Assembly (NCBI GenBank): GCA_038217285.1
Contig: JBBQPO010000150.1
Location: 1-15,224, forward strand
DNA: 15,224 nt
Direction: 5' to 3'
From: Chthonomonadales bacterium
Lineage (GTDB): Bacteria; Armatimonadota; Chthonomonadetes; Chthonomonadales; Chthonomonadaceae
Shown one piece after another: positions 1,316-9,650 of the stretch (the first letter of the stretch is position 1; each line of letters begins with the position of its first letter). Made by a program: the position numbers and the translations under genes. A model generated the notes under the pieces. It saw only the letters and a list, made by a program, of their open reading frames with translations. It was not told the DNA's origin and searched no databases.

Positions 1316-1855
1316 ATGAAAAGAGTTCTTGGATTGATGAGCCTGCTGACACTGATGTGCTCAGCGCTGAGCCTGGTATCTGTACCTGCAATGGCGCAAA
1401 AAGGAGGAAGTGGAGGGAGTGGCGGAAGCGGCGGAGGGAGTGGTGGCGGAAGCACCGTCGTCCTTACGACAGTGGCGATCAAGATGAGCAGCTCTGCCAA
1501 TCCCGCCAACGGAGCGGTCCCGCAGGGAACGGCTACCTTCACCTATACGAAGAACGGACTCCCACAAAATCTGGACATCCAGGTGTCCAATGTCGATCTG
1601 CCCGACGGCACGGTGGTGACGGTTCAGGCCGTAGACGCGTTGCGCGTGACTGGACGCTGCTGGCACTACGAGTACTTCAGCTATCACATGATCATCACGG
1701 GGGGCACAGGTTCCCTGTCGTTCGATGCCAGCAAAGGCGATGTCGTCCCCTTCCTGGACCCCAAGAAAGGCTACACGCAGATAAACGTAGCGTCCAATGT
1801 CTCGACCCTCACCACCTTTCTGACCTCCCTACTGCCTTTCAAGGGAGTTCTCTGA
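1316..1855 (+). CDS. Secreted hypothetical protein with signal peptide and Gly/Ser linker
   Basis: MKRVLGLMSLLTLMCSALSLVSVPAMA signal peptide, then KGGSGGSGGSGGGSGGGS and a Thr/Val-rich, probably beta-rich domain. 179 aa. Confidence 0.75.
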   Translation: MKRVLGLMSLLTLMCSALSLVSVPAMAQKGGSGGSGGSGGGSGGGSTVVLTTVAIKMSSSANPANGAVPQGTATFTYTKNGLPQNLDIQVSNVDLPDGTVVTVQAVDALRVTGRCWHYEYFSYHMIITGGTGSLSFDASKGDVVPFLDPKKGYTQINVASNVSTLTTFLTSLLPFKGVL

Positions 1856-1922
1856 TCGCACGGAAGAGGTTCGCGGGGAGAGGCGCCAGGGGAGCGTTCC
1901 TCCCAGGCGTTGCTCCGCACTC

Positions 1923-1958
1923 AGGTCAGCAGAGCTTATTTGCTAGCTCTGCTGACCT
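1923..1958. terminator. Perfect 14-bp hairpin between convergent genes
   Basis: AGGTCAGCAGAGCT-TATTTGCT-AGCTCTGCTGACCT lies between the stops at 1855 (+) and 1974 (-). There is no strong U-tract. Confidence 0.55.
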
Positions 1959-1973
1959 TCTTCGATCCCCGTA

Positions 1974-4436
1974 TCAGCGGCGGGTGGGATAGGGGGTGTT
2001 GACGCCGCGGAGGGTGTGCCAGAGGACCTCGTTCAGGATCTGCGGGTCGGGGCGGTCGAGGCCGCTCCAGTCGAGGGCGAGCGATTTTTCGGTCCAGTAA
2101 CGTTCGAGGCCGGCCTGTTTCGCAGCGGGCGGGTTCATCTGGTCGAGGGCGATACGGTTGGCGACGCTGGTGTAGGGATGCAGATCGGGCGTGTCGGTGA
2201 AACAGCCGGAGAGCGGCGGCGTCAGGGCATCGAAGCGGTTCATCGGGTCGAGGCCAAGCATCTTCTCGATGGAGCGCAGCATGGAGAGCGTCGTATAGAG
2301 AGTGTGGTCCACATAGCCGCGTCGCGTGTAGGGGCTATAAGCGGCGTAGACGGTGCGATGACCATCGACATGGTCGGGGCCGGACTGTGCGTCGTCCTCA
2401 ATGACGAAGATGCAGGTCTCCTTCCACTCCTTGCTCTTCGAGACCGCCTCGACGACGCGCCCCAATGCCAGATCGTTGTCCGCGACCATGCACTGCGGCT
2501 TCGGATAGTGCGGATCGCGGCCTTCCGTGTGGTCGGAGGGCAGGCTCATGATCATCAGGTTGGGGACGCGGCTCTCCCGGCTCATGCGGCCGTACTCACC
2601 GATAAAGAGATCGGCGCGCTCCTGGTCGCTCTGCAGCAGCGGCCAGTAGACGTAGTTCGGATGGATATAAGGGCGCAGCTCTGCGATCCGGGTGCCGACG
2701 CTCTTCTGAATGCGGCGCCTGCCGCTGAGACGGTCCTCCCAGACCTCTTTCCAGCTCGTGACGGTCGGAGTGAACACCGCCAGCTCGTCGTCGCAGAACT
2801 CCCCGTAGATTCGCAGCGACTTCCCCTTCTTCAGCGCGACGTCCCAGAGCCCGCCAGCGGGCGAGATCGCCATCGCGCAGTCGCCGTCGTCGGGGTAGGT
2901 GCGGTAGCCGGTGTAGAAATGTTCGAGATAGTCGTCCGCGACGGCCTGGGTGCTCCAGGCGTGGCCGTCCGCGCTGTTGGTGCCGGTCACATAGCCGTTG
3001 TCGAAGAGGGTGAACTGTCGGGCCAGCGCATGGGCGTTGGGCGTGATGGTCTCGCCGAGATCGCACAGCTTCGGGTCGCCGTTGCCCTCCTTCATATCGC
3101 CGAACACCTCGTCGTAGGTGCGGTTCTCCTTGATAATGTAGAGGACATGCTTGATCGCGCCCTTGTAGACGGCGAGGGGCGGATCGAGGTCGGCGCGGCT
3201 GCGGTTCCAGTCGTTGTCGGCCGCGACCTGCGCGGTCGCGGCTTTCAGGTCGGCCTTGAGGTCGATCACCGAGACGGTCCCTTGAAAGTCGTGGGCGTTG
3301 CCGGGCTTGCCGAGCACCGTGTTACGCACGGAGCCATTGCCCTTCGTGTTGACGACATAGGCGGCGCTGCCGTCGGGCGCGAGGGCGAGCGCCAGGGGGA
3401 AGTAGCCGGCAGGCCGGTAGCCGCGCACCGTGCCGCTCGGGATGTCGAACTCGCAGAGCGCGTTATCGCCGCCGTTGCAGATATAGAGAGTCTTCCCGGC
3501 AATAGCGAGGGCGCAGGGCATGGAGCCGAACAGGTTGAGCGCACCCCACTTCAGCGGAATAGTCCGGAGGAGCTTCGCGCCGGGAAGGTCGAGGACCGAG
3601 AGGCTGTCGCTCGCGGCGTTGGCGATGTAGGCGATGTCGCCTGCCACGGCGATCCCGGTGGGATGGAGGCCGACCTCCACACGTCTGGTCGTTCCCGTCT
3701 CGCGTTGAATCAGGCTGACCGTGCCGGAAGCGGTCGCCCCGCGTGAATCTATCGCGAGCATGGTGTTGCCACTCGCGGCCATATCGTCGCCGTCTTTGAC
3801 CAGATGTCCGCCCCAGTCGGTGACGATCAGCGTGCGTTCGTCCAAACTCAGCTTCACCTCGAAGGGCAGGTTCTGCACCGGATATTCGCGCACGAAGCGG
3901 CCCTCGGGCAGGGCGATCTCGGCGACGGCGTTGCGGTCGCAGGCGCAGACGAACAGACGGGAGCCGTCGCGGGTGAAAACCATGCCGCCGGGACGGGGGT
4001 TCTCCTTCTCGCCCTCGGCCTGAATAAAGAGCTTTCGGCCCGGCGTCAGCTTGCGGCCCGCCAGGACGTACTCCTGCACCACGCCGTTCTCCACACTTAC
4101 GTAAAGGCGCGCCCCGTCTGGCGACCAGACCGCCCCCCGATAGGCCGCCCCACTCGGCAGCGTAGCCGCAGAATCAGCGATAACGCCTTCCCTGGTAGCA
4201 AGGAAGACGTTGTTCTGATTCAGAACCGCGAAGAACTCCCCGGTGGGATGCAGGGCGATATCGGTCGGTCGCCCGTTGAAGGCGACCGTTCCCGGCGCGA
4301 TGCGGCGGCCGGTCGAAACCACAAATCCGCCGTCCGCCTGTTTGCCCATCTGCAGGATCGGAAAGCGGGCCGCCGTGACGCCGAGTGCGCCCAGCAGCAG
4401 AACGGCCACGAGAGAAATCAAGACTTTGCGTCGCAT
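1974..4436 (-). CDS. Bifunctional YncE-like beta-propeller / alkaline-phosphatase-superfamily phosphoesterase, secreted
   Basis: Start reassigned to ATG 4436 (RBS GGAGG, signal peptide MRRKVLISLVAVLLLGALGVTAA). Propeller repeats include WSPDGARLYV, VGLHPTGIAV and AYIANAASDSLSV. Phosphoesterase motifs include KHVLYIIKENRTYDEVFGD, NSADGHAW and IFVIEDDAQSGPDHVDGHR. Confidence 0.9.
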   Translation of the reverse strand: MRRKVLISLVAVLLLGALGVTAARFPILQMGKQADGGFVVSTGRRIAPGTVAFNGRPTDIALHPTGEFFAVLNQNNVFLATREGVIADSAATLPSGAAYRGAVWSPDGARLYVSVENGVVQEYVLAGRKLTPGRKLFIQAEGEKENPRPGGMVFTRDGSRLFVCACDRNAVAEIALPEGRFVREYPVQNLPFEVKLSLDERTLIVTDWGGHLVKDGDDMAASGNTMLAIDSRGATASGTVSLIQRETGTTRRVEVGLHPTGIAVAGDIAYIANAASDSLSVLDLPGAKLLRTIPLKWGALNLFGSMPCALAIAGKTLYICNGGDNALCEFDIPSGTVRGYRPAGYFPLALALAPDGSAAYVVNTKGNGSVRNTVLGKPGNAHDFQGTVSVIDLKADLKAATAQVAADNDWNRSRADLDPPLAVYKGAIKHVLYIIKENRTYDEVFGDMKEGNGDPKLCDLGETITPNAHALARQFTLFDNGYVTGTNSADGHAWSTQAVADDYLEHFYTGYRTYPDDGDCAMAISPAGGLWDVALKKGKSLRIYGEFCDDELAVFTPTVTSWKEVWEDRLSGRRRIQKSVGTRIAELRPYIHPNYVYWPLLQSDQERADLFIGEYGRMSRESRVPNLMIMSLPSDHTEGRDPHYPKPQCMVADNDLALGRVVEAVSKSKEWKETCIFVIEDDAQSGPDHVDGHRTVYAAYSPYTRRGYVDHTLYTTLSMLRSIEKMLGLDPMNRFDALTPPLSGCFTDTPDLHPYTSVANRIALDQMNPPAAKQAGLERYWTEKSLALDWSGLDRPDPQILNEVLWHTLRGVNTPYPTRR

Positions 4437-4518
4437 GGCGCCTCCACGTCGAATGGTACAACGTCGAATCTTCCGACCGGCCTCTTTCGCTCTCCTCAAA
4501 CCGAGCGGGAAGTGAGAA

Positions 4519-4848
4519 CTACCAGCGCAGTTTGTCGAGCGAGCGATCCTCGTCGCTCAGATCGCTGTCGAGCAGGATGCCCCACTCTTTGCCGCCCTTG
4601 TAGTAGAGGACAGTGCCACAGCCTGTGCATTTCGCGCGGCTGGAGAAACCCTTGCCGACGGGTGGGGTGCGCGACTGCCCGGTGTTCGGGTCGTGCGGGC
4701 GCAGGGGCTTATCGCAGACCGGGCAGCGCCCGAAATCGTTGCCTGCATCCCCCGGCGTGTGGTCTTCAATTGCGTCGGTCGGCGGTTCCGCCGTCTCCGG
4801 CAGCTCGATCACGCCGATATCCGGCGCATCCAACGTCTTTGTACTCAT
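4519..4848 (-). CDS. Small hypothetical protein with CPVC-x28-CTGC (probable Zn-ribbon) and acidic N-terminus
   Basis: A strong RBS (AAGGAGG) precedes ATG 4848. 109 aa with two CxxC motifs. Confidence 0.75.
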   Translation of the reverse strand: MSTKTLDAPDIGVIELPETAEPPTDAIEDHTPGDAGNDFGRCPVCDKPLRPHDPNTGQSRTPPVGKGFSSRAKCTGCGTVLYYKGGKEWGILLDSDLSDEDRSLDKLRW

Positions 4849-4892
4849 CGTTGTTTCCTCCTTATTATAGAACGGGACGTGTCTCACTATCT

Positions 4893-4916: not shown

Positions 4917-5744
4917 CTAAATCCCCGGTCGCGGAAGGACGGTCAGGAGCGTCTCTTTGCCACCCCGCATGACCTTGACGACGACCGGAAGGCTCGGGAC
5001 GATCAGGGAAGCGGCTTCGTAGAGATCGTTGACATTGTCGGTCCAGCGGTCATCGAGAACGGTAATACGGTCGCCCGGCTGAAAGCCTGCCGCCGCCGCC
5101 GCACTGTCGGCATAGATCTGTGTTACCAGGACGCCGTCGTTCGGGGGCGAGGGCGCAACGGTCAGCCCCCAGAGCGAACGTGGCGCGATCACACGCGCCT
5201 TCTGTGAGCCTGCGAAGAGACGATTCATGAGGCCGGTCATGATGTCCTGCGGCGCGTAGTCGACGGGAACGAACGTCACACGGTTGTTGAGATAGTCGAT
5301 CGTCGTATGGAATCGGGCGAAGAAAGAGAAGCCTACGATGCCGTCCAGCCGGCCTTCCAGGCCGCCCAACGCCTCGACGATGGGGTGATCCAGGATCAGC
5401 GCGCTCAGGTTCTCTATCTTCGTCTCTCCGACCGAGAGCGATTTCAACACGACCTGACCACCGATTGCGAGCATACCCGGTTTCGAGGGCTTGCCCTGCT
5501 GCGGAGGGATCAGGCCGAGTTGGCGGGCAGCGCGCAGGCTGATGAAGGTCAGCGGCGAACCGGTGTCCAGAATCAGACGAAACGGCCCCTGGCCGTTCAC
5601 GCGCACCTGAACGGCGATGTGTCCGGTTCGCAGCACCTCCATGGGAGCGGCGTGAGACTGGGCTCCGGCCTGCAGACCGCCGGAGAAGAGAAACGCCAGG
5701 AGCAGCGTCATTGCGAGGAGGAGAGGACGCCGTGGGGTTCGCAT
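4917..5744 (-). CDS. Secreted retropepsin-like aspartyl protease with C-terminal PDZ domain (paralog 2)
   Basis: Signal peptide; HIAVQVRVNGQGPFRLILDTGS (catalytic D60); LDGIVGFSFF motif; PDZ segment LWGLTV...GVLVTQIYADSAAAAAGFQPGDRITVLD...VKVMRGG. Confidence 0.9.
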   Translation of the reverse strand: MRTPRRPLLLAMTLLLAFLFSGGLQAGAQSHAAPMEVLRTGHIAVQVRVNGQGPFRLILDTGSPLTFISLRAARQLGLIPPQQGKPSKPGMLAIGGQVVLKSLSVGETKIENLSALILDHPIVEALGGLEGRLDGIVGFSFFARFHTTIDYLNNRVTFVPVDYAPQDIMTGLMNRLFAGSQKARVIAPRSLWGLTVAPSPPNDGVLVTQIYADSAAAAAGFQPGDRITVLDDRWTDNVNDLYEAASLIVPSLPVVVKVMRGGKETLLTVLPRPGI

Positions 5745-5746
5745 GG

Positions 5747-6643
5747 TCAGAGCCCTCCCTGTCCGGCAACGACCGGCAGCACGATCTTTTTGCCGTCGCG
5801 CTGCACGGTGAAGCGCACGGTCGTCCCCGCCGCCACCGTTGCGGCGCGTTTCAGCAGGTCGGCCGTTCCCTGGAGATCGGTCACCGGATTGTCCCCAACG
5901 GCCAGCGCTGTGATCCGGTCCCCGACTTTCACCCCGGCTTTCGCCGCCGGGCTGTCTGCCAGTACCGCTGCCACCTGCACGGCATCGGCCTTACCGACGG
6001 CGAACTCGATCCCGAAAAAGCCGCGCGGAACCGGCTCCAGGGGCGTCTTCTGCGCGAAGAGAGAGCTCGCCATTTTCGTCAGGCTCTCCATCTGCGCCAT
6101 GCCTTCTGTCGGCACGGCCTTCGCCGTCGTTATCTCCTTTGCGTTCAGAGGAACCAGGATCAGGCCATGCTGCCGGGTCCATGTCATTTTCGGCTGCGTC
6201 AGATCGATCTCGATACGGAAGTTGGCCAGTAAGTTGAAACCGAACACGCCGTCGATGTGGACGCCGGCCAGGCCCATTGCGTTCATGCCTTTGAGTTGCG
6301 CCGGCGATTCGATGCGGCCCTGGGTCTTCTCTAGCGTCGCGCCGCCCTCCACTTCCAGCCGGTCGAAGACACCCCAGCCGTCTGCAGCCGGCTTTACGCC
6401 GATCTTGCTGGCGATCTCCGCGCTGACGAAGAGGGCAGGCGCTCCGGTATCCAGAATGAAGTTGTACGGCCCGTTGCCGTTCAGCTTCGCCCGGACCAGC
6501 AGATGCTTGGTGTCGGCCAGTCGGTAGGGCACATGGAAGACATTGCCCGGCTTCGACGCGACGTCTACGGCGGGCGGAGGCGCCGCGAGGCTATCGCGGG
6601 CGGTCAGGAGGAGCAGCAGGGCAAGGACAGGCAGGTGTTTCAA
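5747..6643 (-). CDS. Secreted retropepsin-like aspartyl protease with C-terminal PDZ domain (paralog 1)
   Basis: TTG start after an AGGAG RBS; signal peptide; HLLVRAKLNGNGPYNFILDTGA (catalytic D65); IDGVFGFNLL; PDZ segment GFFGIEF...VLADSPAAKAGVKVGDRI...FTVQRDGK. Confidence 0.9.
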   Translation of the reverse strand: MKHLPVLALLLLLTARDSLAAPPPAVDVASKPGNVFHVPYRLADTKHLLVRAKLNGNGPYNFILDTGAPALFVSAEIASKIGVKPAADGWGVFDRLEVEGGATLEKTQGRIESPAQLKGMNAMGLAGVHIDGVFGFNLLANFRIEIDLTQPKMTWTRQHGLILVPLNAKEITTAKAVPTEGMAQMESLTKMASSLFAQKTPLEPVPRGFFGIEFAVGKADAVQVAAVLADSPAAKAGVKVGDRITALAVGDNPVTDLQGTADLLKRAATVAAGTTVRFTVQRDGKKIVLPVVAGQGGL

Positions 6644-6663
6644 GCGTTATCTCCTGAAGGCGT

Positions 6664-7191
6664 TCAAAGGTTGCCGTTGTCGCTGACGGAACGCTGACGC
6701 GGGTTGACCTGCAGGCCCGTGGTATGCAGGTAGGCAATGGCCCGCTGCACCTCCAGGAGTGCCCCGGAGAGCGTGATCTCCACCTGTCCGCCCTCTTCGT
6801 CGTCGAAATAGGCGGTCTCGATGTTGACCACCACGTTGAGATCTTTCCCGACACGATAGAGAATCGGCGCATGGCCCTGCGCGGGATTGACGGTCTTGAG
6901 CAGGATCGAGATCGTATTGGGCTGCGCGATGGCGGCTTCCGGCGCGGAGCCGGTGCGCGGCGTGGCGGAGCCGGGCGCATCGCCCAGCACACCGAGCGAA
7001 CGCAGAAACTCCTGCGCCTGCTCGACCTCGCCGGTCGAGCCTTCCAGCGAAAGGGCCACGTGGCCGGAGTCGCTGGAGATGCGCGCGCGCAGGATATTGG
7101 TAACGACATTGAACATCTTGCCGAGGCGCCAGAGGATCGGCTGCCCGAGGATGTCTTTGCGGGCGTTCAGTTCGACGGTAACGAGGGGCAT
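6664..7191 (-). CDS. Stand-alone protein of two tandem NIL (ACT-like, MetN C-terminal) domains
   Basis: Repeat 1: QPILWRLGKMFNVVTNILRARISSDSGHVALSLEG...AQEFLRSLGV. Repeat 2: APILYRVGKDLNVVVNIETAYFDDEEGGQVEITLSG...AIAYLHTTGLQV. A Pro/Ala-rich linker joins them. No signal peptide. Confidence 0.85.
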   Translation of the reverse strand: MPLVTVELNARKDILGQPILWRLGKMFNVVTNILRARISSDSGHVALSLEGSTGEVEQAQEFLRSLGVLGDAPGSATPRTGSAPEAAIAQPNTISILLKTVNPAQGHAPILYRVGKDLNVVVNIETAYFDDEEGGQVEITLSGALLEVQRAIAYLHTTGLQVNPRQRSVSDNGNL

Positions 7192-7392
7192 CAGTGTTCA
7201 GTCCCAATCCGGTCTGCATCGCAGGACGCAGCCCGGAAACCTTTCTACACAGCAGAGGAGGGAGGACGCCCCCAGGCAAGAGACGACAGGGGCGACCGTT
7301 CCGTCTCGAATTGTACCTGATTTTCCCCGCTGCACCGAAAAAATCTCCCTTGTCACAGGCAAAAATAAGCTCTCCGCCTTGTCCCACATTTA

Positions 7393-7419
7393 TATTTTGT
7401 TATTTTGTTATTTTGTTAT
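7393..7419. repeat. 8-bp tandem repeat (TATTTTGT)x3 + TAT
   Basis: Read directly from the sequence, in the AT-rich divergent intergenic region. Confidence 0.9.
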
Positions 7420-7432
7420 CGTTCGCTCGTTT

Positions 7433-7448
7433 TGGCATGGTTTGTGCA
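7433..7448 (+). promoter_or_regulatory. Putative sigma54 (-24/-12) promoter
   Basis: TGGCATGGTTTGTGCA against the consensus TGGCACGNNNNTTGCW, with correct GG-N10-GC spacing. It points toward the PEP-CTERM pseudogene. Confidence 0.55.
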
Positions 7449-7698
7449 GTATTGTGTATTTCGCCCCGATGCGTTCTCCACTTCCGACCTCTTGCAGAAA
7501 GTTTGCCTTCCCCGACACAACGGGTGTGACTTCTTCCTGCGACGACACAGCCGACCACTTCGACGGAACCCTGTTGGGTGATCCTGTCTTTGTGCGGGAG
7601 GGATAGGAGAGAGGGAACGCCCTGGCCTTTGTTCGCCTATTGCGGATTGGGTAGAGTGATGGATCACTCCCTTCGATACGCTGAACCACCTTATCGCA

Positions 7699-8873: not shown

Positions 8874-9650
8874 TCAGGCTTTGCACCGGCGTCGCAAACG
8901 GAACACCAGGCCCGCTCCGATTCCGCTCACCAGGAATGCGTACGTTCCCGGCTCAGGTGTCGGCACGAGAATGAAACTCTGGCCAGCGTTTAATGTGTTC
9001 ATGTAATCCAGGTACTGCTGGTAGTATCGAGGGTACATCGCCGGGCCTGCGGTCAGCGCCCCCAGCCCCATTAACCCGTCGGGCGACAGTTGCGGATTAG
9101 GATATTGGTTCACGGCACCGCCGATGTATTCGTCATACAGGCTCAGCATATGCCCGAACTCATGGGCGTTGGCGACGCTCGTCGATCCGGTATACCAGTT
9201 AAGCATATCGTCACGGCCCGTTCCGGCGTGAACCTGAACCGTCTGGTCGAAGGGGCCTGCCGTCGTCAGGTTGACGGTAATGGGATAGGAGGTGTTCGTG
9301 GCGGTGTCGGTAATCACGAACTTGTTGTTCCAGACACCCTCTACGCCCGCCTTCGCGGCCGCCTGGTACGCAGTCTTGTCCGCTGCGGTGTAGTTCAGGC
9401 CAGCATCGAACACGAAGTCGATCTGAACATCCTTATAAAGTTTTGTACCGTCGAAACCCCGAACGTACTTGTAGTTCCAGCCGTAGGGGCCGTAGGTGGT
9501 TCCGTTGTCGGTGTAGGCGGCCGTTGCGCGAGCGCCGTTGCGGACCTCGGAACCTGTAGTGAGTTGCGCGGACGCGGGGACTGCCGAGGCGAGAACATAA
9601 ATTGCGAGAAATGTCAAACCACTGAGTCGGAGACGCGATAACCAGAGCAT
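8874..9650 (-). CDS. PEP-CTERM-anchored zinc metalloprotease-like protein
   Basis: RBS AAAGGAG; signal peptide ending ASA; zinc motif AHEFGHMLSLYDEY and a downstream GLMG Met-turn-like motif; C-terminal VPTPEPGTYAFLVSGIGAGLVFRLRRRCKA sorting signal. Confidence 0.9.
   Translation of the reverse strand: MLWLSRLRLSGLTFLAIYVLASAVPASAQLTTGSEVRNGARATAAYTDNGTTYGPYGWNYKYVRGFDGTKLYKDVQIDFVFDAGLNYTAADKTAYQAAAKAGVEGVWNNKFVITDTATNTSYPITVNLTTAGPFDQTVQVHAGTGRDDMLNWYTGSTSVANAHEFGHMLSLYDEYIGGAVNQYPNPQLSPDGLMGLGALTAGPAMYPRYYQQYLDYMNTLNAGQSFILVPTPEPGTYAFLVSGIGAGLVFRLRRRCKA

Follow-up and report, generated by a model that had tools for sequence, protein, structure and literature searches.

Adjacent single-lobe retropepsin-like genes with PDZ domains as a candidate two-subunit aspartic protease in bacteria

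Retropepsins are known as homodimers and pepsins as fused two-lobe monomers, and a heterodimer of duplicated genes has long been postulated as the step between them; to our knowledge, no natural example of that step has been described. We analysed a 15,224-nucleotide (nt) stretch of DNA, referred to here as the window (positions 1 to 15,224 of contig JBBQPO010000150.1, assembly GCA_038217285.1), from a Chthonomonadales bacterium of the Armatimonadota. Two adjacent genes on its minus strand, designated A (5747-6643, 298 amino acids) and B (4917-5744, 275 amino acids), each encode a single retropepsin-like lobe joined to a PDZ domain. Comparison of their sequences with those of their relatives suggests that the two products probably pair as an A:B heterodimer to make an aspartic protease of the periplasm, a form that stands between the homodimeric retropepsins and the fused bilobal enzymes.

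The closest described systems each share some of these features. Like A and B, APRc (RC1339) of Rickettsia conorii and RloA, RloB, RloC and RimB of Pseudomonas aeruginosa are non-viral and have the clan AA fold in a single lobe that holds one D-T-G motif, and according to the sections of PMC12239564 cited here the Rlo enzymes are secreted, as is predicted for A and B; as presented in that source, APRc, Rlo and RimB are one-gene homodimers without a PDZ domain, whereas A and B are two diverged, co-encoded paralogues with a PDZ domain on each. Pepsin-like (A1) enzymes and bacterial two-lobe proteins of about 320-440 amino acids build their catalytic unit from two lobes that are not identical and bring one Asp apiece, as is proposed for A/B, but both of their lobes lie in one chain and those of A/B are on two genes. 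HtrA/DegP/DegS, Prc/Ctp and RseP are exported proteases with a C-terminal HtrA-type PDZ domain, as is predicted for A and B, but they are serine or metallo-enzymes whereas the catalytic domain of A/B is aspartic. Muley et al. 2019 (PMC6411480) list the combination of an aspartyl protease with a PDZ domain in their catalogue of PDZ protein families, as one 'yet to be characterized functionally', and the portions of that account drawn on here mention neither paired paralogues nor a heterodimer. Our literature search found no published report of paired or heterodimeric retropepsins.

Open reading frames (ORFs) and Pfam matches confirmed the two adjacent single-lobe retropepsin-like genes that a first-pass annotation, made from the letters of the window, had proposed. 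The called start codons are TTG for A, as in the close relatives L011 and L014, and ATG for B. As that annotation also held, each translation contains a single DTG (NFILDTGAP in A, RLILDTGSP in B), giving the clan AA signature in each chain (DTGA and DTGS, respectively), and a single DGxxG (IDGVFG in A, LDGIVG in B; in the longer form, DGVFGF and DGIVGF). Both proteins score above the Pfam cut-offs for Asp_protease_2 (PF13650, cut-off 24.3; A 29.6 bits over profile positions 1-38 of 90 only, B 48.4 bits over positions 1-90) and for PDZ_2 (cut-off 27; A 41.6 bits, B 35.8 bits). With one lobe and one DTG each, neither has the one-chain, two-lobe organisation of pepsins. Both fall below the cut-offs for the PerP-like family TIGR02281 clan_AA_DTGA (57.95; A 16.2 bits, B 25.1 bits) and for the HtrA/Do serine endopeptidases of TIGR02037 (416 bits; about 34 bits each, from the PDZ region only). 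The supposed difference between the carboxylate-binding loops of the two PDZ domains (PRGFFGIEF in A, PRSLWGLTV in B) is kept family-wide, as RGF[LF]G in the A family versus xxWG[LF] in the B family, and the Met-rich linker noted ahead of each PDZ domain (GMAQMESLTKMASSLF in A, DIMTGLMNRLF in B) is helical in the predicted models. Although only 2 nt apart, the genes are as strongly diverged as had been suggested, with 29% identity in a full-length alignment (E 2e-22). The products have 435 homologues for A in a large protein collection (E<=1e-5) and 80 cluster representatives for B (E<=1e-30), so A and B are real genes rather than chance ORFs. Their features are given below with predicted local distance difference test (pLDDT) values from AlphaFold2 (AF2) monomer models, template modelling (TM) or Z scores of structural matches, and invariance counted over 66 sequences of each family.

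5747..6643, minus strand: gene A, predicted exported single-lobe retropepsin-like protease with linker helix and PDZ domain (ORF, Pfam, 435 homologues, AF2 pLDDT 87.2)
6584..6643, minus strand: putative signal peptide of A, about residues 1-20 (hydrophobic N-terminal helix 4-19 in the model)
6164..6544, minus strand: protease lobe of A, residues 34-160 (pLDDT >90; Foldseek match to APRc 5c9b, TM by target 0.67)
6443..6451, minus strand: catalytic D65-T66-G67 of A (translation; all three invariant in 66/66)
6056..6103, minus strand: Met-rich linker helix of A, residues 181-196 (model helix 181-195, pLDDT about 63-66; Met/Leu pattern conserved)
5765..6031, minus strand: PDZ domain of A, residues 205-293, loop RGF[FL]G (Pfam PDZ_2 at 209-287; PDB profile matches to DegP/DegQ PDZ domains)
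4917..5744, minus strand: gene B, predicted exported single-lobe retropepsin-like protease with linker helix and PDZ domain (ORF, Pfam, AF2 pLDDT 88.2, 80 representatives)
5661..5744, minus strand: putative signal peptide of B, about residues 1-28 (hydrophobic helix 7-19 in the model)
5250..5657, minus strand: protease lobe of B, residues 30-165 (VIA-align: APRc 5c9b Z 11.7 with 125 aligned, Ddi1 7d66 Z 10.4, pepsins Z about 9)
5559..5567, minus strand: catalytic D60-T61-G62 of B (translation; D and G invariant in 66/66)
5211..5249, minus strand: Met-rich linker helix of B, residues 166-178 (model helix 168-177; M169, L/M172 and M173 conserved)
4929..5180, minus strand: PDZ domain of B, residues 189-272, loop xxWG[LF], motif RWTD (Pfam PDZ_2 at 196-269; VIA-align Z 15.0 to the Rv0983 PDZ domain)

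The homologues of A come from sources named Chthonomonadaceae, Abditibacteriales and Gemmataceae, and the nearest loci are in metagenome-assembled genomes (MAGs) of Chthonomonadaceae at 65-77% identity. Public labels of the homologues include serine protease Do/DegQ, htrA 2 and RseP, names that stem from the PDZ match alone. We surveyed 80 loci reached through A, on contigs from one genome per species, and 80 metagenome loci reached through B. A B-type ORF lay directly downstream of A on the same strand in 75 of the 80 A-first loci, and in one further locus (L058) B followed a frameshifted A; in the other four the contig ended within about 80 nt of A, and B was located at nt 45-230 of another contig in three of those genomes and not found in the fourth (G805). 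From the B side, an A ORF was present upstream in 68 of 80 loci, seven showed the C-terminal tail of A (..G.G[LFV] followed by the stop) within the available <=334 nt, one (L170) had a frameshifted A, and four had <=85 nt upstream and were uninformative. Among the 152 informative loci of the two samples, none had A without B or B without A. In a survey of 401 genomes from the phylum of the window, the A profile (E<=1e-35) matched 20, and exactly these 20 were matched by the B profile as well, with a full-length B in 19 of them and, in G394, a fragment within a 125-residue open frame; in all 20 the genes were adjacent in the order A then B, and the remaining 381 genomes contained neither at the thresholds used. 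A Planctomycetota sample yielded three matching genomes of 401 at E<=1e-40, too few carriers for a check of co-occurrence. The frequent solitary occurrence of either clade, which would have spoken against a heterodimer, was therefore not seen, and the invariable co-occurrence of both subunit genes expected of a heteromeric enzyme was found in the 152 informative loci and 20 of 401 genomes.

A second line of evidence comes from two proteins, P0203 (386 amino acids) and P0211 (389 amino acids, 45% identical to the former), that surfaced in an exhaustive HMMER search with B and contain, according to Pfam, two Asp_protease_2 stretches and one PDZ domain each. Their first lobe scores 137/135 bits with the A profile versus 53/75 bits with the B profile, and the remainder about 170/162 bits with the B profile versus about 102/90 bits with the A profile. 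IQ-TREE placed lobe 1 in the A clade with support of 100/99 and lobe 2 in the B clade with 89/57 for the lobe alone and 73/93 with the PDZ domain. The order of the lobes, A-type then B-type, is that of the genes. A linker of 12-15 residues stands in for the A linker helix, the A PDZ domain and the B signal peptide, the last being missing from the B-type lobe of both proteins, and we therefore regard P0203 and P0211 as evolved fusions rather than read-throughs. They provide the Rosetta-stone link, a fusion of the subunits in some lineage, expected of heteromeric enzymes. An ESM Atlas model of P0203 (predicted TM score 0.79) aligns over both lobes to bilobal protease-PDZ clusters, which we treat as a lead only. 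Since A and B always occur together and are fused in rare relatives, they most likely form a two-subunit protease; the heterodimer suggested in the first-pass annotation is thereby supported by comparative sequence evidence, namely the two-way co-occurrence, the identical set of 20 genomes and the P0203 and P0211 fusions.

The history of the two families is that of a unit. When 66 A and 66 B sequences were placed in one tree (132 in all), A and B formed opposite sides of one branch with support of 100, and A and B of the window had the same nearest neighbours. Over 66 loci, the pairwise divergences within A were correlated with those within B (r 0.865; Mantel 0 of 999), and the two means were 0.531 and 0.532. 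These reciprocal clades and matched divergences imply one old duplication, after which the two genes were passed on together, by descent or by transfer, and diverged at equal rates.

Conservation within the lobes differs between the partners. The catalytic Asp is invariant in 66/66 sequences of both families, and the Thr of the DTG, a residue of retropepsins that matters for the fireman's grip, is likewise invariant in A but is V or L in 8/66 B sequences. These eight B genes (D-V-G or D-L-G in L044, L049, L057, L081, L059, L072, L042 and L045), each adjoining an A that keeps DTG, are all in or next to the Isosphaeraceae, coming from Isosphaeraceae/Singulisphaera, including complete Singulisphaera genomes, and from two related MAGs; three more Thr-substituted cases occurred among 79 metagenome B proteins. 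The A lobe is invariant in 66/66 at P39, R51, D65, T66, G67, E99, G100, Q116, N121, G132, G135 and D147, of which E99 and G100 form the flap tip and Q116 and N121 follow it. The B lobe is invariant in 66/66 at H42, D60, G62, P64, H120, P121, G135, G138, D150 and Y151, with H120-P121 standing where A has M-N, so that the invariant residues of the flap and the loop after it differ between the families, and W234 and T235 are invariant in the B PDZ domain. The pre-flap loop of B is variable and modelled with low confidence (AF2 pLDDT 62-77). A tree of lobes gives A a long stem (1.17) and places it beside a short-branched B. Judged from the sequences, this pattern of asymmetry fits two lobes specialised within one cleft. 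Mutual information between the two proteins over 103 non-redundant pairs gave scattered top pairs, to which we attach no weight.

Several observations weigh against a heterodimer, and some of them favour an arrangement in which A2 and B2 are separate homodimers of different specificities that serve one pathway, by sequential or parallel processing, with selection keeping both. Co-occurrence and correlated rates are equally expected from any shared pathway and co-inheritance. Either protein could in principle be self-sufficient, since each has a predicted signal peptide, a complete lobe with a flap GG motif, and a PDZ domain of its own. Bacterial retropepsin-like enzymes are described as homodimers in the sections of PMC12239564 used here, where paralogues are also said to be able to be redundant. 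Single-partner lesions were found as well: A is broken by a nonsense mutation or frameshift beside an intact B in four loci (L037 at 4397-4399, L067, L058 and L170; the lesions lie in the A genes of L037 and L067 and in the A PDZ domain of L058 and L170, and the in-frame stops are TAG), B carries a nonsense mutation in L160, and in L082 it lacks its own stop and runs into the downstream gene. Errors of assembly or recent loss of function may account for these six cases. Fused proteins are few, with two clusters on one and four contigs, support for placing their second lobe with B is only moderate, and a search for longer proteins gave no A-B fusion, only seven redoxin-A fusions.

The flanks of the pair bear on the same two homodimers. 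An exported protein of about 620 amino acids lies directly upstream of A in 30/84 loci and a paralogue of it directly downstream of B in 32/87, mostly in the Gemmataceae (flanks of L016-L170; for example L018:1711-3789 and 5540-7555). It combines an AhpC/TSA-like domain (CPVS, with a single Cys), one CxxCH haem motif and a His-rich domain resembling Cu2_monoox_C/PHM. In P0121-P0127 and L083, evolved fusions join this redoxin-cytochrome protein to the mature N-terminus of A, and the stretch exchanged for a linker in these natural redoxin-A (R1-A) fusions is exactly the putative signal peptide of A. With one redoxin-cytochrome paralogue by A and another by B in about a third of loci, the locus could comprise two parallel systems, and the real fusions to A also count on the side of separate homodimers. 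We nevertheless judge separate A2 and B2 homodimers to be unlikely: no single-partner loss was seen in the 152 informative loci or the 20 genomes, P0203 and P0211 hold A-type and B-type lobes in one chain, and a B2 dimer of the Isosphaeraceae would be without the fireman's-grip Thr on both sides.

Structural models agree with the proposed folds. The lobes (pLDDT >90) and PDZ domains of both AF2 monomers are confident, and the predicted lobes show the single-lobe retropepsin fold (APRc with TM 0.67 for A and Z 11.7 for B; Ddi1 Z 10.4; equine infectious anaemia virus protease Z 8.4). The closest solved lobe to both models is Rickettsia APRc, followed by Ddi1, retroviral proteases and pepsin lobes. 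The B PDZ domain matches the folds of Rv0983 (Z 15.0) and Deg1 (Z 13.8) in VIA-align, and in a sequence-profile search of the PDB the DegP/DegQ PDZ domains were best (E 5e-20 for A, 7e-17 for B); the PDB sequence search gave PDZ matches only and none for either lobe.

In the heterodimer that we favour, A and B would each be exported on their own predicted signal peptide, and each subunit would contribute one catalytic Asp, D65 from A and D60 from B. The non-identical lobes would pair in the manner of identical retropepsin subunits, giving an asymmetric, pepsin-like cleft. HtrA, Prc and RseP offer an analogy for the PDZ domains, which may bind the C-termini of substrates or regulators and, together with the flexible Met-rich helices, might recruit or gate substrates. 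We infer a 1:1 physical pairing in which neither homodimer is a working enzyme, export to the periplasm, and ligands for the PDZ domains and a substrate for the protease. The two PDZ domains may also differ in specificity, as was first supposed; the fused P0203 and P0211 keep only the B-type PDZ domain.

Translation of the two genes is probably coupled, given the arrangement of their junction, in which a Shine-Dalgarno-like (SD-like) run falls within the last codons of A and a 2-nt gap separates the genes (GGGAGGGCTC TGA CC ATG).

5742..5759, minus strand: A/B junction, with SD-like GGGAGGG at 5759-5753, TGA at 5749-5747, CC spacer, and ATG at 5744-5742

Of 72 loci in which the distance from the A stop to the B start was measured, 49 have <=6 nt, and 2 nt is the commonest value (27 loci); of three large values, two come from split A genes and one is a true 535-nt spacer. 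In both families the last residue is Leu, Phe or Ile after an invariant Gly (C-termini at 5750-5761 in A and 4920-4931 in B). The C-terminal codons of A also make up the SD-like run for B, and B ends alike although a coupled gene is not always downstream.

These tails, as possible PDZ ligands, are part of what would be expected if pairing were promiscuous, with AA, AB and BB dimers or larger mixed assemblies held by contacts between PDZ domains and tails, as in HtrA cages, and no obligate heterodimer. The PDZ domains are indeed of the HtrA type, and the N-terminal halves of A and B are close (H47/H42, NGxGP, DTG[AS]P). The conserved A tail has another possible cause, however, since the same codons form the ribosome-binding stretch for B, and sufficient homodimers should sometimes tolerate the loss of one gene, of which we saw no case in the informative loci and genomes surveyed. 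We therefore rate promiscuous pairing as very unlikely, below even the separate homodimers, and retain the A:B heterodimer as the preferred reading.

Relatives outside the two clades occur in other states. Single genes with one lobe and a PDZ domain (P0232, G693 and G723) fell outside the A and B clades in the tree, and G693 and G723 have one full-length copy per genome. The B profile also matched many Armatimonadota proteins that are two-lobe single chains of 320-440 amino acids with two D-[TS]-G motifs, with or without one PDZ domain, such as L171-L176 and a protein on contig C177 of the window's own genome. In the lobe tree, 8/10 C-lobes of such proteins stood apart and A and B grouped with the N-lobes, indicating that the A/B duplication was independent of the duplication that gave N-lobe and C-lobe.

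The protein of the window's own genome (G000:C177, L008:1474-2511, minus strand) is a 345-residue two-lobe protein without a PDZ domain, in which lobe 2 has LLDTG whereas the catalytic Asp is absent from lobe 1, which reads ITTG. L174 (G284:C53:10000-15500) holds three tandem genes for two lobes and a PDZ domain (ORFs 525-1757, 1777-3000 and 2984-4291, plus strand), one with DTD for DTG in the first lobe, and two-lobe genes form a divergent pair in L176, where the second lobe of one reads NCG. Some A-type proteins of 365-372 amino acids (P0053, P0064, P0080, P0088 and P0119) have a second PDZ domain inserted after the protease lobe and ahead of the linker helix. Three apparent fusions were rejected: the fused A-B ORFs of L058 (product P0278) and L170 arise from frameshifts in the A PDZ domain, with the correct A C-terminus in another frame and B retaining its own Met and signal peptide, and in the B-redoxin 'fusion' of L082 the downstream protein retains its signal peptide, which marks a read-through rather than an evolved fusion.

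No third gene was conserved across all loci, and most clusters of neighbours were shadow ORFs; DUF4159 was found near the pair in about 10 loci. In the window, three neighbours lie on the same strand as the pair with short gaps, and are common only to the closest Chthonomonadaceae/Chthonomonadales loci.

6664-7191, minus strand: tandem-NIL-domain gene, 20 nt upstream of A
4519-4887, minus strand: gene for a 122-residue Cys-rich, Zn-ribbon-like protein, downstream, with a weak Mut7-C match
1974-4499, minus strand: gene for an 841-residue phosphoesterase/beta-propeller protein, downstream

Three unlinked homologues of the protein of about 620 amino acids are present elsewhere in the genome of the window (G000:C5:19958-21658, C270:5524-7203 and C323:2249-3490). 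Within the window itself, a 258-residue ORF at 8874-9650 on the minus strand has a PEP-CTERM sorting motif at its end (E 1.3e-4).

Taken further, and tentatively, this one bacterial family may keep all three of the stages by which pepsins are proposed to have arisen, namely single-gene and presumably homodimeric proteins (P0232, G693 and G723), an obligate A:B heterodimer from duplicated genes that are not fused (the window and more than 150 loci) and fused proteins (P0203 and P0211), with the heterodimer of the Gemmataceae possibly wired in addition to paired redoxin-cytochrome-monooxygenase-like proteins, each with a thioredoxin-like domain, a monohaem cytochrome c and a copper monooxygenase-like domain. 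That these paired periplasmic proteins flank the Gemmataceae genes and are in some cases fused to A would suggest a machine that cuts peptides and then modifies them. The A/B family also adds an aspartic type to the PDZ-guided proteases of the envelope, and the public serine protease labels on its members call for correction. The A/B family seems to offer the intermediate step between retropepsin and pepsin, with the presumed ancestral and the fused states alongside it, and it includes cultured strains that are not pathogens, such as Singulisphaera acidiphila DSM 18658 (locus L057), so that the route from a homodimer to an asymmetric enzyme is open to tests at the bench.

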